A stretch of 64,000 nucleotides of DNA, taken from contig CAMVRE010000001.1 in NCBI GenBank assembly GCA_947169825.1, positions 16,463-80,462 of the forward strand, written 5' to 3'. Both the position numbers and the translations under genes were made by a program. Shown piece by piece: positions 5,592 through 25,181 of the stretch (within the stretch, counting starts at the first letter, position 1; each line of letters opens with the position of its first letter). The DNA comes from an uncultured Verrucomicrobiota bacterium (GTDB lineage: Bacteria > Verrucomicrobiota > Kiritimatiellia > RFP12 > UBA3636). The notes under the pieces are model-generated. The model made no database searches. It saw only the letters and a list, made by a program, of their open reading frames with translations, and had not been told where the DNA came from.

Positions 5592-7163
5592 TCAGTTTAC
5601 CGCGGGACCGGGCTCAGTCGCGCGGGCGTTCCGCATCGTCACCGCGAGGGGAATCATGTTGTTTCCGACCGGGAAATAGCCAAACATGAATTCCTTTTTC
5701 GGGATATCGGAGCAGGTTCGGTAGTGGGCGTCGACGGCGTCGGAAACTTCGCAGACGGGGTTCGAAAGATCGAGATCCTGCGTCCGCGGATCGTAGAGGA
5801 AGACGGCCTTCGCCCAATAGACGGAATTTCCCGACGCGTCCTTCTTGCGCCCGTGCCACGTGATGGCCAGATCGTCGTAACCGTCATTGTTCAGATCGAC
5901 CGTTTCGATGCCGATTCCCCTTCTCAGGCCCCTGTCCAGATCGTCGTAGACGAAGATCTGCTGAACGCGGAACGGCGCGTCCTCCAGGGAATCGGCCCAC
6001 CGGAGGTGGACTTCGTAGCAGTAGCGCCATCTCGACTTCACGTTCTTGTTCTCCGTCACGATGCGCCACAGCTCGACGTCGAGCTCGCGCCCGTTCAACC
6101 GGACGGTCGCATCAAGCCGGAGGGAGTTGAGGGGGGCGAGCCGGTGGCGGAGATAATACCCGAGGGCGCTCAAAGCGACTAGCCCGGAGACGATCGCGAA
6201 AATGAGACAACGCCAATAGTTTTCCGCTTCAGGGGTTCTTGCGGGGCCGATGATGACCACAATCAGAAGGAGAAGAACCAAAATTATGCCGACTTCTTCA
6301 AAATGGCGCGACCACCGATGGACACGCCGCCCGTCGATGCGAAACAGGAGATTGGTCGCGACCTTGGAGAAATCCGGTTTGTTCTTTTCCCTTTCGGAAT
6401 AGTACGCACCGACGTCTTTCCATTCTTTCCGGGCGGTGTCGGGTTTGCGCGGGTCACGGTGGAAAAGCAGTTCCTTCTGGGTTTCGCGCAGGATCCCGAT
6501 TTCGTATCCGAGCACCTTTTTCCTTTCGCGGATGACAACCGACGAGACGGGAATCAGCTCGTTCATCGGTCCGATATGGGAGACGAGGATGGCGAGAACG
6601 GGGCCCTTGAGCCGAACGCTGTGGCAGAGATGGAAGGAAACGTGGGTCCGGAGCCTATCGAGGGCTTCTTTTCCAAGTTCGTAACGTTGCGCGTCCGAAA
6701 CCTCGAACGCGAGCCGTTCTTCGTCTTTGGTGCCCAACAACTCTTTTTGGACGTAGGCGCAGAAATCCCGGTCTTCGCGTTTCGGATCTTCTTCGCAAAA
6801 CGTCTTGTAGCCGATATCGACGAGATAGAGCTCCTTTTTTTTCTTGTCCTCGCCGACGCCGAGCAGGATGCACCCGCCCCAGGCGTTGGCCATGGAAACC
6901 ATCGCCTCGACCACGTTCCACTTGCACGCATCGCCCGTCGAGTTGTCCCCCTGCTTGGGAAGATAGTGCGCCTTGAACTCGAGGAAGTTCGTTTCCCGGG
7001 TTCCGTTCTCACGGGAGCCGGAAAGCCCCCGAAGCAGCTTGTCGACGTCAGGTACCGGAGGAGGGTCGACGCCCAGGACGGAGCTGGACAGGGAGCCAAA
7101 ATCATCGCACTTGGCGATTGTCTTTCGGGAGAAAAGGCGAAGGAGTAGCTGTTTCATGGCCAT
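5592..7163 (-). CDS. Schlafen-type AlbA_2 domain protein with central TM helices and a C-terminal FG-GAP/VCBS-like segment
   Basis: AlbA_2 signature NFLEFKAHY...ANAWGGCILLGVGEDKK. Hydrophobic stretches IILVLLLLIVVIIG and LIFAIVSGLVALSALGYY. DLNNDGYDDLAITWHG near the C-terminus. GC and codon use are markedly lower than the neighbours. The listed 1130-aa ORF is cut at MAMKQLL because the remainder is antisense to the 7362-8465 gene. Confidence 0.7.
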   Translation of the reverse strand: MAMKQLLLRLFSRKTIAKCDDFGSLSSSVLGVDPPPVPDVDKLLRGLSGSRENGTRETNFLEFKAHYLPKQGDNSTGDACKWNVVEAMVSMANAWGGCILLGVGEDKKKKELYLVDIGYKTFCEEDPKREDRDFCAYVQKELLGTKDEERLAFEVSDAQRYELGKEALDRLRTHVSFHLCHSVRLKGPVLAILVSHIGPMNELIPVSSVVIRERKKVLGYEIGILRETQKELLFHRDPRKPDTARKEWKDVGAYYSEREKNKPDFSKVATNLLFRIDGRRVHRWSRHFEEVGIILVLLLLIVVIIGPARTPEAENYWRCLIFAIVSGLVALSALGYYLRHRLAPLNSLRLDATVRLNGRELDVELWRIVTENKNVKSRWRYCYEVHLRWADSLEDAPFRVQQIFVYDDLDRGLRRGIGIETVDLNNDGYDDLAITWHGRKKDASGNSVYWAKAVFLYDPRTQDLDLSNPVCEVSDAVDAHYRTCSDIPKKEFMFGYFPVGNNMIPLAVTMRNARATEPGPAVN

Positions 7164-8489: not shown

Positions 8490-9839
8490 ATGAAGAACAA
8501 CGCCATTCGTCCGTTCCGCCTTGCGGCGGCGATCCTTCTTGCGGCGATCGCGCCCGCCGCGATGGCCCATCCTTCGGCCGCGGAACACGCCCGGGATCTG
8601 CGGGCGGTCTTCGCGGGGCTGGAGGAGGGGCCCTTCCGCGAGATCTTCGAAACGGTGAGCGCCGACGTCGACAACGCGCTGGCCAGATCGTTCGAGGCGG
8701 AGATCGGACCGATTCCGGGCGGGCCCGGCAACCATCGCATCCTCGGTCATTCGTGGGCGCTCGGAGATCGCATCCCGAAGGACAAGCTCCGTCTGCTGGA
8801 AAGCGCCCATCCGGGCCGGCGGGCGGACATCGTCCGCTGGTGGAACCGGTTCTCCGAGGCGGAGATCTCGAAGATCGCGGAAAAGACGGGGCTCGCCAGA
8901 CCGCAGGCGAAGGCGCTCGGAAACATCATCTGGCGAATCCATCTGTTCGGCGACCGGACGGTCGACAACCGGGCGGTTGACCACGTCATCCCGACCCGCG
9001 AAAACGCGGAACGGCTGATCCGGGACCTGAACGACCTGTTCCGCCGATCCTGCCCCGACGCCCTGGGCAAGGCCGTGCAGACGATTCGGGACGCGATGCG
9101 TTCCGGGTCAACGGAGGCGGCCCGGGCGACGGCCGCACTCGACGCCTGCGCGAAGGCCCGAATCCCGACCATGCTGGAACAGGGATACGGCAGGCAGCTC
9201 GCCTCGAAGGGCATCGGACGTTCCGCGCAGGCGGCAGCCGCGCTTCCCCGGACGGCCGTCGCCGGCTCCGTTCCGTCCTCCGCCGCGAAACTGATGGCGA
9301 AGGGGAAAGCCTTCGCCGCCAATTCCCCGGAAGGCGCCAAGGCGTGGTCCGCGGCCAAGGAGGGCTTCCGGTCGAAGGGAACCGTACAGGTGCGGCCGGG
9401 ACTCCTGGCGCCGTCCGGACGGCTGCTTACGTCCGTGAAGTCCGGCGCCGCCGCGGGCGCGCTCGTGTTCGCCGCGGACGCCGGCATGGCCTGCTACCGG
9501 TTCTGGCAGGGGGACATCCTCGACGCCGAGTTTGCGGACGGCATCGCGGACGCGGCCCTGAAGGGGGCTGTCGTCGGCGCGGCCGTCGGCGTCGCGGTCC
9601 TGCTGGGCGCGACGCCCCAGGGCTGGGTCGTTCTCGCCGTGGCCACCGCGACGTACATCGTCGTCGACGTCGGAATCCGGATCTGGCGGGAGATCGACGA
9701 ACGGCGGTTCCTCTCCGCGGAAGACCTCGCCGCCTTCGGCATCCGGCCGGATGCGTTTCCGGAGCCGCGCGATACCATTCTTTCGCCGATGGACGACGGG
9801 TTTCTGGAGCCGCGGGACAGTACGCTCGTCTTACCGTGA
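8490..9839 (+). CDS. Hypothetical secreted protein with C-terminal hydrophobic region
   Basis: aggaaggaaaggag lies upstream. Signal peptide MKNNAIRPFRLAAAILLAAIAPAAMA. C-terminal GAVVGAAVGVAVLLGA...VVLAVATATYIVV. Confidence 0.6.
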   Translation: MKNNAIRPFRLAAAILLAAIAPAAMAHPSAAEHARDLRAVFAGLEEGPFREIFETVSADVDNALARSFEAEIGPIPGGPGNHRILGHSWALGDRIPKDKLRLLESAHPGRRADIVRWWNRFSEAEISKIAEKTGLARPQAKALGNIIWRIHLFGDRTVDNRAVDHVIPTRENAERLIRDLNDLFRRSCPDALGKAVQTIRDAMRSGSTEAARATAALDACAKARIPTMLEQGYGRQLASKGIGRSAQAAAALPRTAVAGSVPSSAAKLMAKGKAFAANSPEGAKAWSAAKEGFRSKGTVQVRPGLLAPSGRLLTSVKSGAAAGALVFAADAGMACYRFWQGDILDAEFADGIADAALKGAVVGAAVGVAVLLGATPQGWVVLAVATATYIVVDVGIRIWREIDERRFLSAEDLAAFGIRPDAFPEPRDTILSPMDDGFLEPRDSTLVLP

Positions 9840-9860
9840 CGGGGAGAAGCCGACAATGAC

Positions 9861-10148
9861 ATGAGGAAGCTTCTGGACCATCTCAAGGCGCACGAGGGCA
9901 CGGCGGATCCGTGGATCCTCGTCTGGGACAACCGCGGAACGTTTCCGCGGAAGGTTGGCGAACTCATACGCATCTGCAATCTTGCGACGGGCGCCTCGCA
10001 GCTCTTCGGCATCCCCGTCCGCACGTCGACCTACGTCGACTACCGCGGCGAGGTCGTCCTCGAAACCCGCGTCGAGCGCGCCGAGCTTCCGGAGCTCGTC
10101 GCCCGCCTCGAGTCCCGCCTCCGCCGCCCGCTCCGCCGCGTTTCGTGA
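9861..10148 (+). CDS. Small conserved protein (95 aa); partner gene of the AlbA_2 module, paralog of 14852-15142
   Basis: ggggagaag lies upstream. It is about 80% identical at both protein and DNA level to 14852-15142 (DPWILVWDNRxTFPRKVGxxIRICNLATGAS..FGIPVRTSTxVDYRGEVVLETRVERAELPEL). It ends 38 nt before the AlbA_2 gene. Confidence 0.65.
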   Translation: MRKLLDHLKAHEGTADPWILVWDNRGTFPRKVGELIRICNLATGASQLFGIPVRTSTYVDYRGEVVLETRVERAELPELVARLESRLRRPLRRVS

Positions 10149-10185
10149 TTTCCTTTCGGCTGCGGTTGTGGTATCATCCCGACCC

Positions 10186-12039
10186 ATGCCGACCGCGACA
10201 CGCAAGACCAGGCGCGTCTATCCCGTCAGCGGATACGATTTTGCACGGACCGTCCTCAACCAGAAGGGGGACGGAGCCGTGGAAACCCTGCTGGAAGTCG
10301 CGCACGGCGGGGAAACGGACTGGCTGGAGAAGAAGGCCGGCATCTATCCCTCCGTGGAACACGATCGGGCATTTCGGGCGAAGCTCGAGAAATGTCCCCC
10401 GGAGAAGATCGCCGAAGAGTCGAAATACTACGAGACGGAAATTCTCCGATCAATCGCCTGTTCGCTCGTTGCGCTTCACAATTCGCGCGGCGGCGTGCTG
10501 TTCATCGGCATCGACGACGCCAACGCCCCGGTTCCCTTCGAAACGTGCGATGCCGACGGTGTCCTGGCCACGAAGGGCCTCGAGGCGTACGTTCGGGAAT
10601 CGGTACTGGGAAGACTTCTTCCGAAAGGCGGACTCTTTTCCTGCAAGAAGGAAACCTGGGCGGTCCCCGCCGACCAGCTCGACATCGAGGCGAGAGTGTG
10701 TTCATATCGGGGGGCGAAGGTTCTTGCTCTTCTCGTTCCCCCCTTGGAACCGGGATGTCCCCCCTCACTCGTCACGCGGACGGAAAACAACCGGCCCCGG
10801 AAACTGCTCCTGCAACGCAATCCCGGCGATGTCGGCGCCGTCCGAAGAACCGAAGCGGAATCCTCTTGGGACGACTCGGCCGCGGCCCTTGCCGACTTCC
10901 ACGCCTCCCGCGGACGGACGTTCGGTTCCAACACGGATCTATTCGGAAAACTCCGAGAAATCGGAATCGAGCCCCCGCCGCAAAAGACAAGGTTCTGGGC
11001 AACCGGGCGGCAACGCCGACACCTTCTATCCACAGCAGGCATATTGATAGGCCTCGCGTCCGTCATCGGCCTGACGGTCTTGGGCACCCTTCAGATTCGC
11101 GTCCAAGGCGCACTGACGCGCAAGGAAAAGATTGAAAAGCTGCTGCATGAAAAGGCCCTCGTCCTCTCCCGCACGGCCTTCGCGACCTCCCTTGGCGAAA
11201 CGATGGTCGAGAAGGTCGATCCCACGGTCGTGGACAAGGCCGTGAACGGATTCTGGAAGGATTCGACGCTTTACACCGAGGCGCTTGTCGACATCGCCTT
11301 TGCCCTTCAGGCGCCTGAGGGAACCGATCTCGTCGGCGAAGCCGAGAAGATCCTTCAGGTTCGTCTGGGGGCCGGACTGGAAGCCGCCATCCGCGAGGAG
11401 GCGCGCCGCGTTTGCCGCTACCGCATTGCATTCACCCAGGACGCCATTGAAACCTTCGATCTGTCGGGCAAGGAAGACTCCGGTGCGCGCGAGATGCTCG
11501 CCGTGATTTTGGTCGATGCCGTCCACAACGAAGACTTCAACCGCTGCTGTCTCGACATGGAGGCGGCGCGCTTCCTTGTGGACGAGACGCTGGGGAAGGG
11601 ATCCGCGGGCGGACGGAAGACGCTCCGCATGAACGCGGAAGACGTCCGCGAATACCGCCGCCGGTGCCGCGCGGTTCAGAAAGCCGTTGTCGAAGAGCGC
11701 ATGAACGTGGCCGTGATCCTGACCATTCGCGGGGCGTATGCCGACATTGGCGCCCCGGACTTCGCCGACCGTTTGACCGAAGCGATCTCGCGCGCCACCG
11801 ACATTCCGCGCGACGAGTTCGGAGAACACTTTGCCAAGTTGCTTGACGAGGGCCGTCTTCTGCTTTCCACGAATCTTGCTCAGAGATACGCGCAGATGCT
11901 AAAAGTCCGTGGAGAGTCTGGTCAGATCGATTGGCCGCTTTCCGAGGAAACCGTCGATCTCGTCGTCGAAACCATTGCGCATCGGACCGGCATCGGCGAG
12001 GGGCAGATCCGACTGGCCTTCGACAATGCCTGCCGCTAG
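10186..12039 (+). CDS. AlbA_2 (Schlafen-like) N-terminal domain protein with TM segment and helical C-terminal domain
   Basis: SGYDFARTV...GGETDWLEKKAG...ALHNSRGGVLFIGIDD. A TM segment at LLSTAGILIGLASVIGLTVLGTL. The first ~300 aa are homologous to 15180-19067; the rest is different. Confidence 0.75.
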   Translation: MPTATRKTRRVYPVSGYDFARTVLNQKGDGAVETLLEVAHGGETDWLEKKAGIYPSVEHDRAFRAKLEKCPPEKIAEESKYYETEILRSIACSLVALHNSRGGVLFIGIDDANAPVPFETCDADGVLATKGLEAYVRESVLGRLLPKGGLFSCKKETWAVPADQLDIEARVCSYRGAKVLALLVPPLEPGCPPSLVTRTENNRPRKLLLQRNPGDVGAVRRTEAESSWDDSAAALADFHASRGRTFGSNTDLFGKLREIGIEPPPQKTRFWATGRQRRHLLSTAGILIGLASVIGLTVLGTLQIRVQGALTRKEKIEKLLHEKALVLSRTAFATSLGETMVEKVDPTVVDKAVNGFWKDSTLYTEALVDIAFALQAPEGTDLVGEAEKILQVRLGAGLEAAIREEARRVCRYRIAFTQDAIETFDLSGKEDSGAREMLAVILVDAVHNEDFNRCCLDMEAARFLVDETLGKGSAGGRKTLRMNAEDVREYRRRCRAVQKAVVEERMNVAVILTIRGAYADIGAPDFADRLTEAISRATDIPRDEFGEHFAKLLDEGRLLLSTNLAQRYAQMLKVRGESGQIDWPLSEETVDLVVETIAHRTGIGEGQIRLAFDNACR

Positions 12040-12111
12040 AGCGGTTCTATATCGGACTTGGCGACAGAATTCGTTTGATGGCGAAAGGGGGGTGTGATAG
12101 TATTTATCCCC

Positions 12112-13476
12112 ATGAGAAGCAACCCAATTTCTGGCTACGATCTTGCCAAGTCGATCTTCCGCGAATGCGGAGGCAAGAATGTCGATGCTCTGGTCGATTT
12201 CGCCGGCGGCGAGACGGACTGGCTCGAGTTCAAGGCCGGTCTTTTCGCCCGCCCGGAGGACCTAAAGGACGGAGAACGCCAGGAGGACGCGCTCTGGCAC
12301 GTCGCCCGGGCGGTGTTCGGATTTCTCAATTCGTCTGGCGGCTTGATCATCCTGGGAATCGACGACAAGCGAAAGCCCGCCGATCTGAGGAAGTCCAAAG
12401 GAGGCGAGACGTTGGCCGACGAAGGCATGGAGGCATATTTGAGGAAAGTCGTGGAGCCCAACCTGCCCCCGAGCAAGAAAAAATGGGAAACCGGGCGCGC
12501 CGGCCGTCTTGCATGGGAAGGCCGGGAACGGACTCTCGTCAAGGACGCCATTGGCATTGAGCCGGCCAAATTCCGTGGAAAGGATATCATTCTCCTTTTC
12601 GTGGCTCCTCTCGCCAAGGGGCGGATGGAAATCGTCCGGGAAGGCGATTCGCAAGTTCTTCTGGTCCGACAGCCCGGCCATGTCGCGAAAGTCGAATCCA
12701 TTAAAGACGTCCAAGACATGGTTTCTTGGACAACCCGCCGCCGCAGGGTCGAAAGACGCGAGTTTGCGGAAACACTGGAACAGTTCAAGACAGAGAAAAA
12801 GGAAGATATCCGTGCGAAAGGTGTCGACGCGTTTTCCAAGCCGGGCAAACGGCCAGCCGTCACGAAGAAAGCCAAACCCGCGCCCGGCGTCTTGTTTCCC
12901 TGTCCGGAGTGCGGCTCATATGTTTCCGGCAACGGGAAAAACGGGAACCAGCGTTGCACCAAATGCGGCGAGACGTTCCATTGCGGCGTCTACGAGGAGA
13001 ACTTCGTCCCCCAGCCGGACGACGAGTCCAGCGGATGGGCGGTTGCGAAATGGCTGCTGCTCTCGTTCGGGCACCGGGTGTCCGATTCCGATCTGCGGCG
13101 ACAATTGAAAGTCGAGAAAACGCTTTTCAACGGCGTGACGGGCGATGATTTCGAGGACGTCCTTGATCGTTGCAAATTGGATGTCGAGACGATTACCCTA
13201 TCCAAGAAGGATTTGAACATCGGAGCCTCCGACCTTTGCGAAGCGTTCTCCAACGACGGGCTCGTCGCCGTGGAATACGCGACGGACCGGGCCCCCTTCC
13301 CCGAAACACGTGGCGCAACGAGATGGATCGGACTGGAACGAACGAACAAAGGCGTCGTTCGTGTCATGGATCCCTGGTTTGCCTTCGGATATTTGGAGTT
13401 CCGGGCTTGGAAGAAGGCCGCATTTGACGATGTCAGGGCCATCGTGAAAGCCTTCTCTGTTTTTGAAAAGGAATAG
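12112..13476 (+). CDS. AlbA_2 domain protein fused to Zn-ribbon and a degenerate papain-like (C39-like) domain
   Basis: SGYDLAKSI...GGETDWLEFKAG...FLNSSGGLIILGIDD. Zn-ribbon CPECGSYV...RCTKCGETFHC. The C-terminal GWAVAKWLL...WIGLERTNKGVVRVMDP is homologous to 30879-31574, but the catalytic Cys is replaced by Ser and the His by Arg. Confidence 0.75.
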   Translation: MRSNPISGYDLAKSIFRECGGKNVDALVDFAGGETDWLEFKAGLFARPEDLKDGERQEDALWHVARAVFGFLNSSGGLIILGIDDKRKPADLRKSKGGETLADEGMEAYLRKVVEPNLPPSKKKWETGRAGRLAWEGRERTLVKDAIGIEPAKFRGKDIILLFVAPLAKGRMEIVREGDSQVLLVRQPGHVAKVESIKDVQDMVSWTTRRRRVERREFAETLEQFKTEKKEDIRAKGVDAFSKPGKRPAVTKKAKPAPGVLFPCPECGSYVSGNGKNGNQRCTKCGETFHCGVYEENFVPQPDDESSGWAVAKWLLLSFGHRVSDSDLRRQLKVEKTLFNGVTGDDFEDVLDRCKLDVETITLSKKDLNIGASDLCEAFSNDGLVAVEYATDRAPFPETRGATRWIGLERTNKGVVRVMDPWFAFGYLEFRAWKKAAFDDVRAIVKAFSVFEKE

Positions 13477-13490
13477 ATCCATTCGGATCC

Positions 13491-13730
13491 GTGTTCAAAC
13501 GGTTCCAAAAAGAAAACATGGATTCGAAAACTCCCAAGTCGCAGTCCTCGGTGCCCAAAAAGAAGCCTAAATCGCCGCAGTGGCTGATGGGCATCATCTT
13601 TTTTCTTGGGCCATTTCGTGTTCGATTGGTTGCTGCTATGATCGTTCTGGTCAATCGGGCCCGTCGTGCGGCGATTGGGGCAAAATTGGAAAAACGGAAG
13701 CAATCAAGGCTCAAGAAACGAGTCGAATGA
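13491..13730 (+). CDS. Small basic hydrophobic protein, hypothetical (79 aa)
   Basis: Lies in a low-GC patch between two island genes. Contains WLMGIIFFLGPFRVRLVAAMIVLV. No domain. Confidence 0.3.
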   Translation: MFKRFQKENMDSKTPKSQSSVPKKKPKSPQWLMGIIFFLGPFRVRLVAAMIVLVNRARRAAIGAKLEKRKQSRLKKRVE

Positions 13731-13871
13731 GTCGCGAGGATCAAATCTGACTTGAGAAAAGGGCGGAAGAAACCGAACGAAAAGGCCAGGAAGATTCCGC
13801 TTGTCGGGGATGTCTCAAGATTTGTGGATACAGGGTGTTCCGTATGGGAAGCAGGGGGAGACAAGGTCCGT

Positions 13872-14741
13872 TCACGCGGCCTTGTATCGTCGTTCATAGG
13901 CCCGTCGGTCGAACGCAACCGACGGGAACACCTTCCCGAACGAATGGTCGAGCAGGGACGGCGTCTCGCGGTAGCGGCCGCCGGTGTTGTCCAACAGCCG
14001 ACCCATCGGGTTGACGACGATGTAGGCGTTAACGATGTCCGCCGTGTTCTCCACGACGGGGCGGCAGTCCGCGTGGCGCGCCGCAAAAGCCTCGAATTCC
14101 GCGCCGGAGACGAGCAGATCGTCCGCGTGGTCGTTCGTCCCTTCGATCCGGATCATCCGCAGCAGCTTCCACCGATCGGGACGGACTGCCGCCACCAAGG
14201 CGTGGAAGTCCTGGCGGCAGTTCACCCGGTTGACCACGGTGTTGATCTTCAGCCGGATTCCCGCGGCGTGGATCGCGCGCGCCAGCTCCCCTAGCCGCGA
14301 CATGGACAGGCTCTGGCCGGCGCCGTTGACACGCCCCAGCCGGCAGTTGTCCTCGTGGCGGAAGGCGTCGACGCTGATGCCGATCATGGACAGCTTGTTC
14401 CGGTTGGCGTCGATCCACGACGGCGTGAGCAGGCTGCCGTTCGTGATGACGGAGACGGGAATGCCCAATCCGTGGATGTGGTCGATCAGCCCTTGGGCGA
14501 ACGGCGCCGCCAGAGGCTCTCCTCCCGCCAGATTGAACCGGCGCACGTCCACGTCGCGAGTGATGTTGGAGACGATTCGCTTCCATTCTTCCAGCCCCAG
14601 CGGCGTCCTGCCGAAACGCGAATGGCAGAACCGGCACCGGTAGTTGCAGATGTCGGTGTAGTGGAGATTGACGACCAGGTCCTGGTATTCCTTCATGGCA
14701 CGGGTTCCTTGTTCGGGTTGGATGGCTTCCACATTTGGCAT
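13872..14741 (-). CDS. Prokaryotic viperin-like radical SAM enzyme (pVip)
   Basis: VVNLHYTDICNYRCRFCH carries the CxxxCxxC cluster. GGEPL and SVITNGSLL align with eukaryotic viperin (NYHFTRQCNYKCGFCFH...SGGEPF...VSNGSLI). GGAGGA lies 7 nt upstream of ATG 14741. Confidence 0.85.
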   Translation of the reverse strand: MPNVEAIQPEQGTRAMKEYQDLVVNLHYTDICNYRCRFCHSRFGRTPLGLEEWKRIVSNITRDVDVRRFNLAGGEPLAAPFAQGLIDHIHGLGIPVSVITNGSLLTPSWIDANRNKLSMIGISVDAFRHEDNCRLGRVNGAGQSLSMSRLGELARAIHAAGIRLKINTVVNRVNCRQDFHALVAAVRPDRWKLLRMIRIEGTNDHADDLLVSGAEFEAFAARHADCRPVVENTADIVNAYIVVNPMGRLLDNTGGRYRETPSLLDHSFGKVFPSVAFDRRAYERRYKAA

Positions 14742-14851
14742 AAGGGATTCCTCCGCCGGTTTTCCGATTTTGCGGTTTTACCGGTTTGCGATGGAAATGA
14801 CCGGAATCCGCCGCTTATGGGTGGTGTCGGCGGAATCCGTCAAAACGAGAC

Positions 14852-15142
14852 ATGCACAAACTCCTAGAACACCTCAAAGCGCATCTTTCGACGGCCGATC
14901 CGTGGATTCTCGTCTGGGACAATCGCGAGACGTTTCCGCGGAAGGTCGGGGACCGTATCCGCATCTGTAATCTGGCGACGGGCGCGTCGCTGTTCTTCGG
15001 CATCCCCGTTAGGACTTCGACCTGGGTCGACTACCGCGGCGAGGTCGTTCTCGAAACCCGTGTCGAGCGGGCCGAACTACCGGAACTGCTCGCGCGCCTC
15101 GAGGCGCGACTCCGACATTCGCCGGGCCGCCGCGTTTCATGA
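14852..15142 (+). CDS. Small conserved protein (96 aa); partner gene, paralog of 9861-10148
   Basis: See 9861-10148. The 3' flanking sequence tgatttcctttcggc is also duplicated. Confidence 0.65.
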   Translation: MHKLLEHLKAHLSTADPWILVWDNRETFPRKVGDRIRICNLATGASLFFGIPVRTSTWVDYRGEVVLETRVERAELPELLARLEARLRHSPGRRVS

Positions 15143-15179
15143 TTTCCTTTCGGCCGTCCTTCTGGTAGAATTCATCTCC

Positions 15180-18100
15180 ATGCAAGCCACTTCCACCGCA
15201 CGGTCTCCTCTGGTTCCCGTCAACGGATACGATTTTGCCCGATCGGTTCTCGACCAGGAACCGGATCGTGGCGTCGAGATACTTCTTCAGGCGGCAGGCG
15301 AAAACGAATCGGACTGGCTCGAAAAGAAAGCCGCGGTCTACCGGTCGGAAAGCAAGGACGAACGCTTCCGGAAAGCGTTGGAAAACTGCCCCCCCGAACA
15401 GAGGAAACGCAGGAAAGATCTCCTGAATCTCGAATTGCTCGCTGAAATCGCCAAGGCCATCGTCGCCATCCACAACTCCCGAGGTGGCGTTTTGTTCGTC
15501 GGCATCGACGACCAAACCAATGAACCCGTTTCCTTCGAAAACAACGACGGCGGAGAAATCTGGAGGACGAACGGAAAGGGCGACTATGCCCTCAAGGCGG
15601 TTTGGGGCCGGCTTGCCCGGGAGAACGGAGAGTTTCGTTTCGACCACGAGACATTGATCGTTCCGGTGGAAGCCGTCGGCGTGGTTCCAAAATGGTGTCG
15701 CTACAAGAACGCGGATGTCCTCGCCCTGCTCATCCCCCCGCTCGCACCCGAAAAGAATCCGCTTGAAGTCACGCACGTCGAAAACAATTCTCCGTGGAGA
15801 TCCATTCCGAAGAGAGCACCAGGAGATGTCGGTCAAGTCAAGAAGGAAATGCGAAACGATGCGTGGATCGGTTCCGCCGCACAATTGGCCGATTTCCACC
15901 ACGCCCGCCAAGAACGTTTTCTAAATCAAACCGATCTTGCTTCCAAACTCAAGATACTTGGTCTTTCCGTTCCCAGCTCCTTTGTTTCCCAAATTCCGAA
16001 GCCCCGGCAGGAAATCACCTCGACCGTCGACCGTCCGCGCGCAGCCAACTTCGTCGGACGCGAAAAGGAACTCGAAGAGTTGCACGAACTGCTCGCGGAC
16101 GGACGAATCCCCGTCGTGACCGGTCCAGGTGGGACGGGCAAGTCCGAGTTGGTCCTCCAGTACGCCGCACGGAACAAGGCCGACTACCCCGGAGGTTTGT
16201 TCCAGATTGACATGGAAGACGTCACCGATTGGAATCAGACCTTCCTATCAATGCTGGAGAAGCCCGGCGTTCGGGATGTTCTCGGACTTCCGGTGAACAA
16301 CGAAGCCGAGATAGAATGTGAAGCCGAAAAGGAACCAAGTGTCAATAGTGCGGAATTGGCAGCCGACGGAACTGGCATGCCATGCGACAATTGCTTGAGA
16401 GAGAGCATCGCCGGAGACAAGAAATCCGTTCCAGCGGCCTTGTCCGCCCGGGTCGGCAGGGCAGGTCCCATTTTGATGATCCTTGACAACGTCGATCCTC
16501 CAGCCTGCAAAACGCTTTTCAAGGAAACCGTCCTCTCCAAACTGGGTCTTCCGTCCGACGTGAAAATCGTCGCCACGGCACGGGCGTCAGATCTTACCTT
16601 TCCGGCCAGCGGCGTCTGCAAGGAATTCCGACTTTCCGACTTGTTGCCGGATGTAGCCGTCCGGTTTTTGCTGGCAAATCACCCGGAGGCTTCCGAAGAC
16701 GAACGGAAGGCGGCGGAAAACATCGCCCGGATGCTTGATTATCGCATCCTCTATCTGAAGGCCGTTCCCTCGCTGTTGGAGGATGACGATTCCGATTTTG
16801 CCGGGTCGTGGAGGGCACTCGAAGCGGGCCTGCGCGACAATCTCGCGGATGTCGTCGCCGCGGGAATGGAAGACGACAGGGGCCGGACGCCGTCCGCCCT
16901 TTGGCAACTGACGCAAAAGGCTTTTGCCGCCAATCGTCCAAAAGGAGACAGGTGGATTCTCCTGGCGCGGATCGCCTCGTTCTTTTCTCCTGACCTCGGC
17001 ATCCGGAAAGCCGCGCTTTCCGCATTGTGGAAAAGCATCTCGGCGCCAGATGGCGATCTGGACATCGCCTTTGATCAGGCGATCAACAAACTTCTCAAGC
17101 ATGGTATCCTCGAGGACCGAGACGGCGAATACTATATGCATCGTCTCACATGCGCGGCCATTCGAGCCGCTTCAAGAGAGGAAGCGCCGAACATCGAGGA
17201 ATCTGTCGGTTTGTCATTGGCGGGAACTGGTCGCTCGGAGAGTCGGGACTGGGTATCGCTCTCCGGCAGTATTCCGGCCCTGCGCCATGTCCCGGAGGCT
17301 CTGCTCGACGGAAAGACGTGCGTTGACATCCTGTGCGGCAACCGTCAATTCGCCGACCTTTGCCCGTGGACAAAACTCGACTATTCTGATTGGAGGAAAC
17401 TTCTTGCCTTTCATCCACAGTTTATCGATCAATTGCAACAATCCGCTGATAATGGCAGCGCTGGTGCACAAATCGCTCTTGGGATTTGTTACTATTACGG
17501 TCGCGGCGTGAACCAGAATTACGAAGAAGCCGTAAAATGGTTCCGCAAGGCTGCCGAGCAGGAAAACGCTGCTGCGTATTCGAATCTCGGCGTATGCTAC
17601 GAAAAGGGCCGCGGCGTGGAACGGAACGCCGAAGAGGCCGCGAAATGGTACCGCAAAGCCGCCAATCAGGAAAACGCTACTGCGCAGACCAATCTCGGCA
17701 ATTGCTACTACAACGGTTGCGGCGTGGAACAGAGTTCTGAGGAAGCCGTGAAGTGGTACCTCAAGGCCGCCGAGAAGGGAAACGCTGATGCGCAGTTCAA
17801 TCTCGGCGTATGCTATGGCAATGGCCACGGCGTGAAGCAGAACGCCGAGGAAGCTGTGAGGTGGTTCCGCCAGGCCGCCAATCAGGAAAACGCTACTGCG
17901 CAGTTCAATCTCGGTTGCTGCTACTACCACGGTCGTGGTGTGGAACAGAACTACGAAGAAGCCGTGAGGTGGTGGCGCAGGGCCGCCGATCAAGGAAAGG
18001 GTGCAGCGCAATTTAATCTTGGCGTGTGCTATGGCAAGGGCCACGGCGTGGATCGGAGCGCCGAGGAAGCCGTGAAGTGGTACCGTAAGGCTGCCGAGCA

Positions 18101-19067
18101 GGAAGACGCCGCTGCGCAGGCTAGGCTCGGCTTGTGCTACGAGGAGGGCGAAGGCGTGGAACGGAACGCCGAGGAAGCCGTAAAATGGTACCGCAAGGCC
18201 GCCGAGCAGGGCAACGCTTCTGCACAGACAAAACTCGGTTATTGCAAGAATGACGGCCGTGGCATAGAACGAAGCGTCGAAGATGCGGTGAAGTGGTGGC
18301 AAAAAGCGGCAGAACGGGGGTACGCCCCGGCTCAATGGGAACTCGGTAGTTGCTTTGCCCTCGGAAAAGGTGTCGCGCGGAATGAGGAAGAGGCCGTAAA
18401 CTGGTGGCGTAAGGCGGCGGACCAAGGAAACCCCTGGAGACAAATCCGTTTGGGCCGGGTTCTTTTGTTCGGGAACGGCGTTGAAAAGAACGAGGCGGAG
18501 GCGTTCCGTTGGTTCCAGCGCGCGGCGGAACAAAAAGACGATTATGCGTTCGCCTGGCTCGGCTACTGTTTCGCGTCAGGAACCGGGACGCCCAAGGATA
18601 CACAAAAATCTGAATCGCTCTTTTTGAAGATCAGTCAACCCGCTCTTGGATTCAACGAGATTGCATGGTGTTTGTTCAAAGCAGGACGGTTTTCGGATGC
18701 CTTGCCGTTCGCGGAAAGGGCAGTTGCCGCGTTGCGGACAATCGAAGACTTCCCGATGCAGAAACGAATTATAATCCTCGATACACTTGCTGCCATTTTT
18801 CACCATTTGAACCGGGAAGAGGAAACGAAAGACGTTTGCTCCGAAATCCTGTCTCTGTTCCCAGAAAACGACGATTCAAAACACCACGAGGAAGCTCTCG
18901 TCCGGCTCGGGCGGGCCTGTCAACGCCTTGGCGACAAATCTGGCGCGGTCGATGCGTTCCAGAAGGCACTAACCATTGTGGAACGGCATGACGGCAAGCA
19001 CGCCGAATACGGAGAGTCCGCAGATTCCTTGCGCGCGTTGCTGGCCGAATTGTCGGAACGCGGTTGA
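15180..19067 (+). CDS. AlbA_2 N-terminal domain fused to STAND (NB-ARC-like) NTPase and Sel1/TPR repeat array; Avs-like architecture
   Basis: NGYDFARSV...ESDWLEKKAA...AIHNSRGGVLFVGIDD. Walker A PVVTGPGGTGKSELV and Walker B ILMILDNVD. At least 12 Sel1-type repeats (AQxxLGxCYxxGxGVxxNxEEAVKWYRKAAEQ). C-terminal TPR-like segment. Confidence 0.85.
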   Translation: MQATSTARSPLVPVNGYDFARSVLDQEPDRGVEILLQAAGENESDWLEKKAAVYRSESKDERFRKALENCPPEQRKRRKDLLNLELLAEIAKAIVAIHNSRGGVLFVGIDDQTNEPVSFENNDGGEIWRTNGKGDYALKAVWGRLARENGEFRFDHETLIVPVEAVGVVPKWCRYKNADVLALLIPPLAPEKNPLEVTHVENNSPWRSIPKRAPGDVGQVKKEMRNDAWIGSAAQLADFHHARQERFLNQTDLASKLKILGLSVPSSFVSQIPKPRQEITSTVDRPRAANFVGREKELEELHELLADGRIPVVTGPGGTGKSELVLQYAARNKADYPGGLFQIDMEDVTDWNQTFLSMLEKPGVRDVLGLPVNNEAEIECEAEKEPSVNSAELAADGTGMPCDNCLRESIAGDKKSVPAALSARVGRAGPILMILDNVDPPACKTLFKETVLSKLGLPSDVKIVATARASDLTFPASGVCKEFRLSDLLPDVAVRFLLANHPEASEDERKAAENIARMLDYRILYLKAVPSLLEDDDSDFAGSWRALEAGLRDNLADVVAAGMEDDRGRTPSALWQLTQKAFAANRPKGDRWILLARIASFFSPDLGIRKAALSALWKSISAPDGDLDIAFDQAINKLLKHGILEDRDGEYYMHRLTCAAIRAASREEAPNIEESVGLSLAGTGRSESRDWVSLSGSIPALRHVPEALLDGKTCVDILCGNRQFADLCPWTKLDYSDWRKLLAFHPQFIDQLQQSADNGSAGAQIALGICYYYGRGVNQNYEEAVKWFRKAAEQENAAAYSNLGVCYEKGRGVERNAEEAAKWYRKAANQENATAQTNLGNCYYNGCGVEQSSEEAVKWYLKAAEKGNADAQFNLGVCYGNGHGVKQNAEEAVRWFRQAANQENATAQFNLGCCYYHGRGVEQNYEEAVRWWRRAADQGKGAAQFNLGVCYGKGHGVDRSAEEAVKWYRKAAEQEDAAAQARLGLCYEEGEGVERNAEEAVKWYRKAAEQGNASAQTKLGYCKNDGRGIERSVEDAVKWWQKAAERGYAPAQWELGSCFALGKGVARNEEEAVNWWRKAADQGNPWRQIRLGRVLLFGNGVEKNEAEAFRWFQRAAEQKDDYAFAWLGYCFASGTGTPKDTQKSESLFLKISQPALGFNEIAWCLFKAGRFSDALPFAERAVAALRTIEDFPMQKRIIILDTLAAIFHHLNREEETKDVCSEILSLFPENDDSKHHEEALVRLGRACQRLGDKSGAVDAFQKALTIVERHDGKHAEYGESADSLRALLAELSERG

Positions 19068-19328: not shown

Positions 19329-20561
19329 ATGCAGGCGGACGATCTTGAATCAGCACAGACCGTGCTGCAGGACAAAGTATTCCGGCGCGCAGGCGAACTC
19401 GGATACGACGCCGACAAGATTGAGCCGATCTATGACGGCGTGGCCGATGCAGTGGCATATCTTGACGCGAAGCCGCGGTTGATGTGGATCCTCAAGGAGC
19501 CCTACGACGACTGGGACGACGATGAAAGTCCCTGCGGCGGCGGATGGACGTTCTTCCGGGATGTCGCGAAGGGAAAGACCCTCGCGCAGGTCGCGAACGC
19601 GAACCCGGCCCTTCGCAACGTGGCGTACGCAAGCCGAGCCATTCTGGGCGGCATCGGTTCCTACGCAGAGCTGCCGTGGATTGTGGATGCGCCGGCGGAC
19701 TACGAGCGCTCGCTGCGGAGCATCGCGTTCGTAAACGTGGGCAAGATGCCGGCGGGTCGGACCACGAGCGAGGAACGCCTCGCCGCCTGTTATGCGCAAT
19801 GGAAGGACGTTCTCTTCGAGCAGATCGATCTCTATGATCCGGACATCCTCGTCTTCGGCAACACGCTGCAATGCTTCGAGCCGGACATGGGACTTGATCT
19901 TTCCAAGCCGGTCCGGACCGTGAAGAACGGAGGATCGACGGTGGATATCCACGTTTGGCGCGGCAAGCGCATCCTCTGGGCGCCGCATCCCGCCGCTCAC
20001 ATTCAACCCGAAGAATGGGTGGATTCCGTCATCGAGGCGGCACGGGGCCCGTTAATCCAGGCGGCGCGCTCGGCGAGCGCGCCCTACCGGGAGGAATCCG
20101 CCAGTCCGGTAGGGCGCGATGGCCCCATCGCGCCGGATTCCGAAATCGCGGTACGACCGTCGCAGAAAGTCGCACCGGAAGAAAAAAGCGGGCAGGCCCG
20201 GAAAACAGCGGCGGCTACCGCTTATACAAGGCAGAACAACCCCACGAACACACAACAAAACGAATCCAAAACCAGGAGCAGCACCATGTCCCAAGTCCAC
20301 GCCAATCCCGACGAAATCCGCGACTTCGCCGCCCGGCTCCAGGCCTGCGACGAGAACATCTCGGACGAACTTTCCGCCACGGCCGCCGCGTTCGCGGCGC
20401 TCGGCGACACCTGGAACGACGCCAAGCGCGCGGAGTTCGAGGAATCCTTCGAGGAGCTGAAGGACTGCATCGGCCGCTTCTCGGCCTCCTGCGCGGAGCA
20501 GGTTCCCCACCTGATCCGGCTCGCCGACCACCTCGACGAATTCAACGCCACCTTCTGCTGA
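19329..20561 (+). CDS. Hypothetical protein; N-terminal ~240-aa unknown domain and C-terminal 91-aa helical WXG100-like segment (possibly two genes, see findings)
   Basis: AAGGAA 7 nt upstream of ATG 19329. The ORF is continuous, but residues 241-319 are the translation of a GC-rich palindromic repeat. An A/C-rich canonical leader precedes internal ATG 20286 (MSQVHANPDEIRDFAARLQA...LGDTWNDAKRAEFEE...). Confidence 0.5.
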   Translation: MQADDLESAQTVLQDKVFRRAGELGYDADKIEPIYDGVADAVAYLDAKPRLMWILKEPYDDWDDDESPCGGGWTFFRDVAKGKTLAQVANANPALRNVAYASRAILGGIGSYAELPWIVDAPADYERSLRSIAFVNVGKMPAGRTTSEERLAACYAQWKDVLFEQIDLYDPDILVFGNTLQCFEPDMGLDLSKPVRTVKNGGSTVDIHVWRGKRILWAPHPAAHIQPEEWVDSVIEAARGPLIQAARSASAPYREESASPVGRDGPIAPDSEIAVRPSQKVAPEEKSGQARKTAAATAYTRQNNPTNTQQNESKTRSSTMSQVHANPDEIRDFAARLQACDENISDELSATAAAFAALGDTWNDAKRAEFEESFEELKDCIGRFSASCAEQVPHLIRLADHLDEFNATFC

Positions 20562-20566
20562 ACGAA

Positions 20567-21769
20567 ATGGAAACCGTCGCCTCCGTCGAAAACATGGAAG
20601 ATGTCTCGTCGGCCCTCTCCTCCGGGGTCGAGAACGCGGCGGAGTCCGTCCGCGAGACGGGCTCCTCGCTCGACGGCCTCTCGGAGGCGGCCGACGCCGC
20701 CCTCGCCGATGCGGAGCGCGCGGTCGAGGAGGCCCGGGCAGAAGTCGTCCGGCTCGAATCGCTGGTTTCGTCCCTCGAATCGCAAATCTCCTCCCAAGAC
20801 GACGGCGAGAAGGATTCCGGCGGAAACGATTCCGCCGCGGCCGAACTCGCGTCCGCGCAGGCGGATCTCGGAGAAGCGAAGGAAGAGCTTCGCAATTGCG
20901 AGGACCGTCGCGAGAAGGCGGCGGCGACGGCGCGCCGGGCGACGGCGCTGCGCGAACGCTTCCTGGACGCGAGCCGAGCTTCGCTGAAGCGGATGGAGGA
21001 TCTCGGAACCCTGTGCGCCTCCCGCGTCCGGCATGCCTGCGAGGCGCTGGAGAAGTACATCGCCGAACATCCCGGACACGCGGCGGCCGGATTCGCCGGA
21101 TGGATCCGGTGGACTCCGCCGGCGAACGCGCCCGTGACGCCCGATGCGCTCGCCGCCCGGATCAAGGGCGCGAATCTCCGGGAATCCATCGCCTACGAGG
21201 CGGAGCGCGATCCGCGGTTCCGGTCCAAGATCGAGGACTACGGACGCCGCTGGGAGTCCGCGGCCACGCTCTCGGAGAAGACGGCCGTCATCCGCCAGGC
21301 GCGCCGGAACGCCAGCGGCGAACTGGCGGAACGCGTCGTGACGGCGGCGTTCCGCCCGATCGGAGACGTCTCCACGCAGAACCGGACCGTCTTCGACGAC
21401 GGGCGCTACACGAAGACGGATCTCGTCGTCCGCAACCTGCGCGCGCCGGTGATCCTCGGGCGCGGCGACCGCGCCTTCGCCCCGAAAGGAGGGACGATCG
21501 CGTTCGAGGTCAAGGCGGGACAGGCGTCCTACCTGCGGTCGCAGGAGGACCATCTCGCGTTCCAGGCCGGCGGGCACCGGACGGCGAACGCCTCGGCGAC
21601 GATCTGCACGGCGGACATCCACGATCTGCCGGAAGCGGAGGAGCGCGAACTGAGGGACAGGCTCCGCGCCGCGGGTTCGCCGATCCTCGGCATGCTGCCG
21701 CGGAAGCGGGATATCGACCGGGCTCTCTACGAAGCCATCGTCTACGGAATCGGGAAGACCAGACCATGA
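20567..21769 (+). CDS. Coiled-coil N-terminal / putative PD-(D/E)xK nuclease C-terminal protein (polymorphic-toxin-like)
   Basis: Ala/Glu-rich helical N-terminus (AERAVEEARAEVVRLESLVSSLESQ). C-terminal YTKTDLVVRN...GGTIAFEVKAGQ fits the D...(D/E)xK restriction-endonuclease-fold motif. Translationally coupled to the upstream stop. Confidence 0.55.
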   Translation: METVASVENMEDVSSALSSGVENAAESVRETGSSLDGLSEAADAALADAERAVEEARAEVVRLESLVSSLESQISSQDDGEKDSGGNDSAAAELASAQADLGEAKEELRNCEDRREKAAATARRATALRERFLDASRASLKRMEDLGTLCASRVRHACEALEKYIAEHPGHAAAGFAGWIRWTPPANAPVTPDALAARIKGANLRESIAYEAERDPRFRSKIEDYGRRWESAATLSEKTAVIRQARRNASGELAERVVTAAFRPIGDVSTQNRTVFDDGRYTKTDLVVRNLRAPVILGRGDRAFAPKGGTIAFEVKAGQASYLRSQEDHLAFQAGGHRTANASATICTADIHDLPEAEERELRDRLRAAGSPILGMLPRKRDIDRALYEAIVYGIGKTRP

Positions 21770-21966
21770 ACGACAATCTCGCGACCTCCTTCAAGCGCGC
21801 TCTTGAACTCTTCCGGGAACAGACCCGCGGCGAGTTCGCGACGAATCTGATGGAGAAGGTCCTCGAACCAATGGCGAACGAACTGGACGCCCTGTCGTCC
21901 GAAATCGAAAGCGCGAACCGGGAACTCTCCGATCTCGAAACCGAACTCGAAGGAAACAACGAATGA
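21766..21966 (+). CDS. Small helical protein (66 aa), hypothetical
   Basis: ATG overlaps the upstream stop (ATGA). Coiled-coil ELDALSSEIESANRELSDLETELE. Ends 4 nt into the next start. Confidence 0.5.
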   Translation: MNDNLATSFKRALELFREQTRGEFATNLMEKVLEPMANELDALSSEIESANRELSDLETELEGNNE

Positions 21967-24900: not shown

Positions 24901-25181
24901 CGCTGGTCGAGCGACCGAAGAAAAGCGGCGTGCAGCTCGTGCTGCTCTTCCGCGACTACGGACGGGCGTGCCAGGACGCCAAGGGCCTGCTCTCGGTCTG
25001 CGACCTGCGCATCGGAGACATGACGCTCTCCGAACCGGCGAAGTTCCTCGGCTTCGAGGGAATCGGGCCGAGGGAGGTTCCGGCGCTCTCCCCGACCAAG
25101 GCCGTGCTGATCGACCGCGACGCCGACGGACCGGCCGTGTTCCGGCCGTTCGCGCAATCGAAAGGGGGCGCGCAATGGTAG
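21963..25181 (+). CDS. FtsK/SpoIIIE-family ATPase (single ATPase domain) with N-terminal coiled-coil region
   Basis: Walker A LLGGSTGSGKTNLLHVLI, Walker B RILLVVDEFQRLF, and GRSAGIHLLMATQTVNGL. GAAGGA RBS. No TM segment apparent. Confidence 0.85.
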   Translation: MKNDIRETNDEIRRLVGALDASLDGIPAGEVAREAALKARAGKLDGEIVGLLAKAGFTRETAGAGAFDSLRREASERAAERAGREGEASDAATRAAAVRAEIAGLDADIESAKARQKALTDRIDALTAEIRNRWIVEDIWHWIFGDEAKAEKARAEGARAAVRNELDVLLGSLHEKEERRNALAAEESDLRRQEAELDARIGENAARQNAFRNAVATAREHGKVLAELSDLKGRQEKRAAERAQAGRDAARELGERVADILGAQPRLADLGPDGYGRAETFPKAFSFGRYRFSADGHDWCVPRILPFPMPKSLVFPATEAGTAAVREFLLRAFQCLPPESLEITVCDPVRMGASLNGFQGLLDNRKPVAGGKFPTVAPEIEEALSRLHGAIETFLQEECTGEIRDWASYNAAHPDRPKTYRILAMFDLPDQLTDAAAGYLAKILENGPKCGILPLLALDPAKLDPRRHAALKAALGAFAWDAGRMQGIFGGFPVLRNARLAAEEPCALPDDAGVSAALSGLCAGYAERDRFAGSLESVLRDEAFWGATSENGLEATIGWEEESRAPVRFSLSDQPPVHALLGGSTGSGKTNLLHVLIHSLCHRYSPRELNLYLLDYKEATEFNAYARPLLPHAAGIATESDVEYGISVLRHLERERIRRSELFKEAGTVDIRGYRRKTGEALPRILLVVDEFQRLFEGAKAGAEAETLFRNLLKLGRSAGIHLLMATQTVNGLQNIVSIRTFLGQMACRLALKCTPEDSATLLAMDNLAASTLPGPPHGILNNDLGKKSANVRLCIPLADPDGCKAHLEELSAAAAERGEGVSDCRVFRGTALPEPPADGGLVSPEEIRGPRIAVGRTADFEEEPVFADLDGKNLLVVARRSDIAGGLRRAIARGIAAGAGTKEVLLYSENPEDWNALDGAANIVRVDDEWSGENLDEFAARDAARKVVVLDGFENLRGLRSAGYVPSRSGPSAAERLRALVERPKKSGVQLVLLFRDYGRACQDAKGLLSVCDLRIGDMTLSEPAKFLGFEGIGPREVPALSPTKAVLIDRDADGPAVFRPFAQSKGGAQW

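Follow-up and report, generated by a model that had tools for sequence, protein, structure and literature searches.

The 64,000-nt window analysed here (positions 16,463 to 80,462, forward strand, of contig CAMVRE010000001.1, assembly GCA_947169825.1) comes from an uncultured Verrucomicrobiota bacterium of the class Kiritimatiellia (RFP12; UBA3636), and it carries two genes, called A and B below, that share a zinc (Zn) ribbon followed by a domain related to the C39 peptidases. Gene A (12112-13476, plus strand) encodes a protein of 454 aa made up of an AlbA_2 domain, a linker, a C4 Zn ribbon and a degenerate, pseudo-C39-like domain, while gene B (30879-31574, plus strand) encodes a 231-aa protein consisting of a Zn ribbon and an active-looking C39-like peptidase. 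Both open reading frames (ORFs) had been picked out in an initial annotation, whose coordinates, translations and motifs proved exact. The call for gene A in public gene collections gives the same 454-aa product with the same start at 12112, and its reading frame has a coding-like GC pattern by codon position (0.61/0.42/0.69). The window as a whole is 66% GC, and the long ORFs on the opposite strand at A are shadow ORFs of this GC-rich genome. Neither A nor B has a signal peptide or a transmembrane (TM) segment.

The N-terminal part of A matches the AlbA_2/Schlafen-type family PF04326 above the Pfam cut-off (30.7 bits against 25.3, E 4.9e-7) over a core of aa 34-119 (12211-12468, plus strand), and the full domain probably extends from aa 1 to ~205. 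It contains the motifs E..ExK and GxDD. The Zn ribbon of A (C264/C267/C282/C285; 12901-12972, plus strand) has the arrangement CPxC...CxxC, weak matches to Zn-ribbon families in Pfam and four short strands in the AlphaFold2 (AF2) model. It is followed by the degenerate papain-fold domain (13000-13473, plus strand), in which Q301, S307, R404 and D420 occupy the catalytic columns; AF2, Foldseek and those columns themselves support the assignment. In B the ribbon (C21/C24/C39/C42; 30939-31004, plus strand) likewise draws many weak Zn-ribbon matches in Pfam, and the peptidase domain (31041-31571, plus strand) contains Q58 (31050), C64 (31068), H185 (31431) and D200 (31476). B also has a helical insert of ~35 residues that is absent from the clades on the A side. 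A single BLASTP comparison of the two proteins aligned A 264-430 with B 21-209, covering the Zn ribbon and the entire downstream domain of ~160 aa, at 33% identity over 200 columns and E 4e-18. The similarity is far above chance, and this alignment upholds the claim that the two-domain unit is present twice in the window. The fold evidence places the shared domain nearest to C39 (Foldseek matches, four columns in hhalign, marginal Pfam scores).

As modelled, the shared domain is a papain fold whose nearest relative is peptidase C39, and it is structure prediction that settles the fold. The AF2 model of the C-terminal 215 residues of A, built from a 31-sequence alignment, has a pLDDT of 86 and a pTM of 0.80. 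A Foldseek search of the PDB with this model gave 17 matches at E<=1e-3, headed by the C39 peptidase domain of PCAT1 (E 8e-5); ComA PEP was matched with a TMt of 0.60-0.67. Further matches include the papain-like toxins 8ssm (CdiA-CT) and 9l5u, staphopain and phytochelatin synthase, with LahT (E 4.8e-3, TMt 0.66), the C39-like domain (CLD) of HlyB (3zua, E 8e-3), bacterial Josephins and a "putative C39-like peptidase" (3erv) among the weaker ones. Nearly all matches of the B model are papain folds too, and PCAT1 has the best TM-score. The best structural matches of the family are the C39 peptidases (ComA PEP, PCAT1, LahT; PF03412), and in the models the position of the nucleophile adjoins the beginning of the first long helix, and those of His and Asp fall on or beside successive beta strands.

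Profile comparison by hhalign points the same way. The family profile aligned with ComA peptidase domains at E 3.4e-4 (the ComA sequence used is identical to PDB 8hf7), and four conserved family columns fell on Q11, C17, H96 and D112 of ComA. The spacing from Gln to the nucleophile is 6 in both A and B, and that from the His position to Asp is 16 in A and 15 in B, in line with the catalytic residues of LahT, Gln21/Cys27 and His101/Asp117, which are spaced by 6 and 16 (PMC6363468). Other profile searches returned the ribbon. Comparison of the family profile with PDB sequences found Zn ribbons only, and when 24 family members were compared with Pfam at E<=10 the matches listed were only Zn ribbons, with C39-clan families marginal. 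B itself has no C39 match in Pfam, nor is one found among the 25 most frequent families across B and 21 homologs at E<=10. One distant relative has a marginal, sub-threshold match (E 0.011) to DUF3335, in Pfam's description a "Peptidase_C39 like family".

The catalytic columns separate the two genes. B has the complete tetrad with C39 spacing, Q58 and C64 in QPDGITCGW, H185 in HWIGIE and D200 in MDP; the counterparts in A are Q301 and S307 (QPDDESSGW), R404 (RWIGLE) and D420, so A fails the comparison at two of the four places, S307 and R404. The B tetrad and the four ribbon Cys are invariant in 22/22 B-type sequences (B and its 21 closest homologs), and all other active-type members retain Cys, His and Asp. 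Most of them read Q C H D, the Gln column being variable in P0058, P0072, P0083 and the first copy in contig L009. The initial annotation had called B active-looking and the copy fused to AlbA_2 degenerate, and on both counts it was correct.

Forms that lack the nucleophile are varied. P0031 and P0036 read Q S R D like A; P0051 reads Q D N D; P0067, which is truncated or frame-shifted, has Asn at the Cys position; P0042 reads Q S H D; and P0070, an unfused and distant member, reads A S R D. With the exception of P0070, all of the Cys-less forms bear an extra N-terminal domain, be it AlbA_2, a TM anchor or a helical region, while active forms bear Zn ribbon(s) or basic tails only. Fusion of the pseudo-peptidase to AlbA_2 sets these proteins apart from other AlbA_2 proteins and was found in just four protein clusters (A, P0036, P0051 and P0067). 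The Ser that replaces Cys in A recurs in P0036, but not in P0051 (Asp) or P0067 (Asn); what is common to all of them is the absence of Cys.

A and B are members of a small, previously undescribed family that combines a Zn ribbon with a C39-like papain-fold domain. Database searches with B gave 29 homologs in addition to its own cluster, none of the full-length ones having a Pfam annotation. An exhaustive hidden Markov model (HMM) search of 1.84 billion cluster representatives found 125 proteins at E<=1e-3, of which only ~20 contain the peptidase-like domain, the remainder matching the Zn ribbon alone. A word-index search with the C-terminus of A had returned one protein only, and the orthologs of A were recovered by the HMM search. 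Among the related contigs retrieved, MGnify assemblies of rumen or ruminant metagenomes predominate, alongside Logan assemblies, and the single match in a scan of GTDB genomes was a Kiritimatiellae metagenome-assembled genome from yak rumen. The family is in neither Pfam nor PADLOC, and it was not found in the conflict-system papers searched.

In a neighbour-joining tree of the domain, A groups with P0031, P0036 and P0051; this clade is sister to P0042 plus the active P0037 and P0044, and well apart from the clade of B. Because they fall in different clades, A and B are old paralogs from different subfamilies and not the products of a duplication within the island. The A clade includes two full-length orthologs with the same fusion, P0036 (68% identical to A) and P0051 (47%), both of which match AlbA_2 in Pfam. 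Cys is absent from these two and from the truncated P0067, and the His position is also lost in P0036 and P0051, yet the clade retains the motifs GWAVAKWLL (GWAxAKWLL), WIG(L/I)ER and VMDP; the differing substitutions, set beside retained core motifs, indicate that catalysis was lost and the fold kept. The loss of His is not recent, since the codon for Arg404 is AGA, at least two substitutions from any His codon. Comparison with the ortholog in contig L006, at a dS close to saturation, gave a dN/dS of 0.26 in the pseudo-domain and of 0.16 in AlbA_2 (that with contig L001 was uninformative, there being ~7 differences). An intact ORF and a dN/dS of ~0.26 argue that A is a maintained pseudo-peptidase under purifying selection, with a C-terminal domain that is functional but, judged from its residues, non-catalytic; the confident AF2 model is in keeping with this.

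Two other accounts of the degenerate domain meet this evidence directly. Were it the inert remnant of a decaying fusion, the lost catalytic residues, the truncated or frame-shifted P0067 and the faster evolution of the C-terminal domain relative to AlbA_2 would be expected; intact full-length orthologs at 68% and 47% identity with their core motifs kept, the dN/dS of ~0.26, a confident AF2 model and the recent transfer of the intact module onto another N-terminus (see below) would not, and the idea is very improbable. Equally hard to credit is a hydrolytic A in which Ser307 serves as alternative nucleophile in a serine variant of the papain fold. Exchange of Cys for Ser is chemically conservative, P0042 has Ser together with His and Asp, and A retains Gln301 and Asp420, but Arg stands in place of the general base in A, P0031 and P0036, and with Asp/Asn in P0051 and Asn in P0067 the clade shares no consistent catalytic dyad. 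The structural and evolutionary account, a C39-like fold with an active-looking B and a pseudo-peptidase A, seems to us very likely to be right.

There is direct evidence that the C-terminal half of A moves as a unit. A sister contig, L001, aligns with two parts of the window, 12840-13778 and 19341-22214 (90%), and with nothing between them. Within the first of these regions, 12840 to ~13540 is ~99.6% identical to L001 470-1170, with four mismatches in 700 nt, while the neighbouring homologous DNA of the two genomes is only ~90% identical and there is no similarity upstream. The match starts abruptly at 12840-12842 (plus strand), which marks a recombination junction in the linker ahead of the Zn ribbon, and in the L001 protein a short TM-anchored N-terminus replaces AlbA_2. 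A block at ~99.6% next to homologous DNA at ~90%, together with a sharp upstream breakpoint, suggests a very recent lateral exchange of the module. This is a recent cassette exchange at a domain boundary, in which the Zn-ribbon-pseudo-C39 module is the constant part. The initial annotation had proposed domain shuffling inside the island; shuffling did take place, but at the linker before the ribbon and between genomes, the separate clades of A and B speaking against an event within the island.

L001 also bears on how the two genes relate. The A-like gene in that contig lies two genes upstream of a WXG100-like gene, after which the contig ends before the ATPase gene is reached, and the gene that follows the A-like one encodes a 437-aa membrane protein (1121-2461). 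A remnant of the N-terminus of the same membrane-protein gene follows A in the window (13491-13730, plus strand; 57% aa identity to the start of the L001 gene). Some 5.5 kb of the window, holding a viperin gene, a small ORF and an AlbA_2-STAND gene, lies between the two regions matched by L001 and is absent from it. The earlier statement that the two copies, 17 kb apart, belong to different sub-systems is not supported in that form, for the A-like gene of L001 sits just upstream of the WXG100/FtsK-like locus that ends with B in the window.

This arrangement invites the suggestion that A is cargo, perhaps a toxin, of an FtsK/EssC-like WXG100 export machine, with the C-terminal module serving in trafficking or recognition and the N-terminus, AlbA_2 here or the TM anchor in L001, as an exchangeable payload. 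The position of the A-like gene in L001 would fit, as would a module ~99.6% identical between genomes whose flanks are at 90% and whose N-termini differ, and one study proposes that WXG100/FtsK operons are mobile secretion modules (PMC11090510). On the other side, neither an FtsK nor a WXG100 gene is present in the ~4 kb to each side of the A ortholog in contig L007, other family members come from Hsp70/dynamin and TerB-DnaJ loci devoid of FtsK, and no immunity-like gene is evident. FtsK-like proteins associated with CoCoNuT systems, which are homologs of the ATPase in the window and not that protein itself, lack TM segments according to Bell et al. (PMC11090510). We consider such an export role improbable.

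B closes a locus of recognizable type. Between 19329 and 29792 (plus strand) Pfam identifies a TerY-P-type triad with an embedded WXG100/FtsK operon, in the order WXG100-like protein (19329-20561, plus strand), a protein of unknown type, a 1072-aa FtsK/EssC-like ATPase (21963-25181, plus strand), a VWA-NYN fusion, a kinase, a VWA protein and a PP2C phosphatase; the kinase match is sub-threshold (24.7 bits against 31.7). Then come a zincin of the Peptidase_Mx family (29811-30401, plus strand; HEFGH...EDWAE; PF15887, E 2e-7), a small Gly/Ala-rich protein resembling a glycine zipper (30436-30867, plus strand; no Pfam match) and B itself. Contig L008 has the same gene order and ends directly in a B homolog, so that B stands at the 3' end in two genomes and is a conserved terminal gene of the WXG100/FtsK/TerY-P-type locus. 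As a separate observation, the NYN part of the VWA-NYN fusion is a Zc3h12a-like RNase domain.

Elsewhere the family keeps similar company. Contigs L002, L003 and L005 each carry a dynamin/Hsp70/PrsW locus that closes with Peptidase_Mx followed by a B homolog. In L009 and L010, family members lie downstream of a TerB-DnaJ gene and upstream of Peptidase_Mx, those of L009 (2174-4307) forming a tandem of an active-type copy (R C H D) and P0042, whose Q S H D domain has an extra helical N-terminus. The Peptidase_Mx of L007, 60% identical to the one in the window, comes directly after an ortholog of A. Counting L004, where a remnant of Peptidase_Mx is left, and L010, where the copy is partial, the zincin adjoins active and dead forms of the domain in six locus types (B in the window; L002, L003 and L005; L007; L009; L010; L004). 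The family is located at the ends of NTPase-centred conflict or defence loci, usually beside a Peptidase_Mx zincin; a literature search on Peptidase_Mx found nothing related.

Several features of these loci deserve separate mention. In the dynamin/Hsp70/PrsW loci, Peptidase_Mx and the B homolog are preceded by genes for a dynamin-like GTPase, two Hsp70-like proteins and a PrsW protease. One of the Hsp70-like proteins, an ATPase (L002 1385-3535, also present in L003 and L005), has a Zn ribbon of the same type as the family (38 bits, E ~1e-11) and, in L002, Sel1 repeats and a C-terminal glycine zipper as well. P0049, a protein of 184 aa, begins as the N-terminal half of a Zn-ribbon-C39-like protein and continues as the C-terminal part of Peptidase_Mx; the C39 His and HExxH are both missing from it. 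A deletion spanning two neighbouring genes probably produced this chimera, in keeping with the adjacency of the two gene types. The glycine-zipper-like protein was considered as a substrate with a double-glycine leader and set aside, as its candidate site "ENG|A" lacks hydrophobic residues at -7 and -12 and the gene is absent from the other loci. Inspection against the pattern described in PMC6363468 (hydrophobic -4/-7/-12 plus GG) found no such pattern in it, and it is not conserved in the other loci.

The best overall explanation of these data, to which we would give a probability of about 60%, is that B is of the active type while the pseudo-peptidase of A serves as a binding or regulatory module. 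With its Q58/C64/H185/D200 set, B is predicted to be a competent cysteine peptidase, most likely the processing or effector protease of the WXG100/FtsK/TerY-P-type locus it terminates, and it would probably act together with, or on, Peptidase_Mx. For A the leading candidate is a mechanism in which the Zn-ribbon-pseudo-C39 module would bind, and not cleave, the peptide or protein recognized by its active relatives, possibly the Peptidase_Mx partner or a product of it, and so couple AlbA_2, the presumed nuclease effector, to the same signal. The same slot, C-terminal to AlbA_2, is taken by a STAND-Sel1/TPR or a TM-containing region in three paralogs of the island. Precedent for such binding comes from the CLD of HlyB, which has lost the catalytic Cys and tethers its substrate without cutting it (PMC6363468). 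The "non-catalytic binding module" of the initial annotation is a reasonable reading, borne out as to the loss of residues and the maintained ORF (dN/dS ~0.26), and binding is extrapolated from HlyB; any specific binding or regulatory mechanism for A is put forward tentatively, as somewhat less than an even bet.

A number of points weigh against this interpretation. With respect to the fold, the B model is moderate (pLDDT 70) and its best Foldseek match reaches only E 9e-3; the hhalign alignment to ComA has a probability of only 38%, a two-sequence C39 profile being a thin template; and no C39-clan model of Pfam reaches threshold on the family, the A domain scoring 14.1 bits (E 0.041) for Peptidase_C39 under a cut-off of 22. 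By sequence thresholds, with no Pfam model exceeded, the family is one of its own. With respect to function, Ser307 might in principle still act as a nucleophile, and P0042 keeps Ser and His. Peptidase_Mx is absent from L008 and L001 and from beside A in the window, and no candidate ligand or substrate was identified. The presumed nuclease role of AlbA_2 is an analogy with eukaryotic Schlafens, which are nucleases. In PADLOC-DB 2.0 no relevant match was found for A, B, Peptidase_Mx, the kinase, VWA or PP2C, the FtsK-like ATPase matching models of SspH/HerA-type ATPases, and, PADLOC having no model for A, B and Peptidase_Mx, it is the context (viperin, STAND and TerY-P-type genes) that suggests a defence role.

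The recurrent neighbours can also be taken as a pseudo-enzyme paired with an enzyme, much as cFLIP is with caspase-8. Here the dead domain of A would heterodimerize with B or Peptidase_Mx and act as inhibitor, scaffold or adaptor, not as a ligand sensor. Active and Cys-less copies do co-occur, as A and B in the window and as the tandem in L009, and Peptidase_Mx neighbours both types. The Hsp70-like core protein of L002 contains this type of Zn ribbon too, which shared adaptor modules would lead one to expect (the homotypic effector-associated domain, or EAD, concept; PMC7159879). The low identity of A and B (33%) and their separate clades count against direct pairing, however, as do the orthologs of A in L006 and L007, which have no active copy in their sequenced flanks, and we think the idea unlikely, though less so than export as cargo.

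A more speculative extension, for which the odds are long, would make A a prokaryotic "integrated decoy", an inactive copy of a B-type protease fused to a Schlafen-like nuclease. Integrated decoy domains are familiar from the NLR receptors of plants. A phage inhibitor or modifier of the B-type protease or of Peptidase_Mx would also bind the decoy and thereby trigger abortive infection through AlbA_2, and the swap of N-termini between L001 and the window might represent diversification of effectors on a fixed bait.

Comparison with known systems helps to place the preferred reading of A as a binding or regulatory module and B as an active protease. Relative to C39 peptidases proper, there is no fusion to an ABC transporter in the family and no ABC transporter among the neighbours scanned; the family has an N-terminal Zn ribbon, B has its helical insert, and Pfam scores are sub-threshold. 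The family also sits in conflict loci with a zincin partner, and no double-glycine substrate was found. Like the HlyB-type CLD (3ZUA), A, P0031, P0036, P0051 and P0067 keep the C39 fold and have lost Cys. That domain differs in being the N-terminal domain of the ABC transporter of a type I secretion system, where its task is to tether an unfolded RTX substrate. A is not fused to a transporter, and its module is soluble, lies C-terminal to AlbA_2, has also lost His and has a Zn ribbon.

Small C39-like papain-fold effectors of conflict systems are known in the Cpe1-type and CdiA-CT toxins (PMC12136450; bioRxiv 10.64898/2026.05.07.723447), and interbacterial toxins of this kind (Cpe1-type 9l5u; CdiA-CT/StbD 8ssm) match the A model at Foldseek E 1.4e-4 to 3e-4 and TMt ~0.6. 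They are C-terminal domains of secreted polymorphic toxins with adjacent immunity genes, whereas B stands alone, looks cytoplasmic and has a Zn ribbon, and no immunity gene was recognized beside it. A role as peptidoglycan peptidase was raised by BFVD matches to LysA and endolysin peptidase domains; it is unlikely because neither A nor B has a signal peptide or TM segment. An eLife 2020 paper on conflict systems makes no mention of Schlafen/AlbA, and its papain-like domain is an unrelated peptidoglycan peptidase.

TerY-P triads with an embedded WXG100/FtsK(EssC)-like operon are known from Anantharaman et al. 2012 and from Bell et al. 2024 (PMC11090510), and the WXG100-like and FtsK-like genes, the two VWA genes, the kinase and PP2C of the window follow the arrangement described there; the passages cited name neither a Zn-ribbon-C39-like peptidase nor Peptidase_Mx as a terminal gene.

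The wider interest of the family lies in its recurrence. An uncatalogued Zn ribbon plus C39-like family, together with Peptidase_Mx, returns as the terminal module of several NTPase-centred conflict loci, spanning the WXG100/FtsK/TerY-P, Hsp70/dynamin and TerB-DnaJ types, in rumen bacteria resembling Kiritimatiellae. Its members form a natural series from active (QCHD) through partial (QSHD) to dead (QSRD, QDND), and loss of the nucleophile goes together with acquisition of an N-terminal domain, a tractable case of exaptation from enzyme to binding module in a defence island. Should the pseudo-peptidase indeed gate a Schlafen-like nuclease, it would be a second independent example of the principle seen in the HlyB CLD, and the gating would also provide a handle on what the active proteases of these loci recognize. 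That said, C39-like peptidases, pseudo-peptidases of the CLD type, modular fusions of effector and sensor and Zn ribbons in TerY-P-type systems are all known already, and for a very small and taxonomically narrow family the impact is moderate.

The surroundings of A are rich in AlbA_2 genes. Directly upstream lies a gene for an AlbA_2 protein with one TM segment and an unknown C-terminal region (10186-12039, plus strand), recognized by a weak AlbA_2 match and by alignment with its paralogs. It is probably co-transcribed with A across a gap of 73 nt, and an AlbA_2 gene likewise precedes the A ortholog in L007. Downstream is a prokaryotic viperin (pVip; 13872-14741, minus strand; PADLOC pVip E 1.3e-72, with a Radical_SAM match in Pfam), then an AlbA_2-STAND-Sel1x10-TPR protein (15180-19067). 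A further paralog (~5592-7160, minus strand) has two TM segments and a domain with a weak FG-GAP match. All told, the window holds four N-terminal AlbA_2 paralogs whose C-terminal regions are all different, and a close homolog elsewhere has a coiled coil in place of the Zn-ribbon-pseudo-C39 module. The motifs ETDWLEFK and GGxxxLGIDD are common to A and the three other paralogs; ETDWLEFK and LGIDD may correspond to the catalytic Glu/Glu/Asp of SLFN proteins. The four paralogs look like one effector domain placed on interchangeable sensor modules.

A small ORF of 95 aa is present at 9861-10148 and again at 14852-15142, with a coding-like GC pattern and no Pfam match, and the two copies are highly similar as proteins. 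Each belongs to a duplicated cassette (9858-10339 and 14849-15333, 75% nt identity) that comprises the small ORF and the start of the AlbA_2 gene downstream of it, and the small protein may act with the AlbA_2 proteins or regulate them. A scan of 9600-15300 for promoters and terminators gave a signal no higher than that of shuffled sequences. The internal tandem repetition at 17443-18431 (70-76% identity) corresponds to the Sel1 array of the AlbA_2-STAND protein. Alignment of the window against itself by BLAST also revealed, at 47623-47877, a long imperfect palindrome in which ~255 bp match their own reverse complement at 72% identity.

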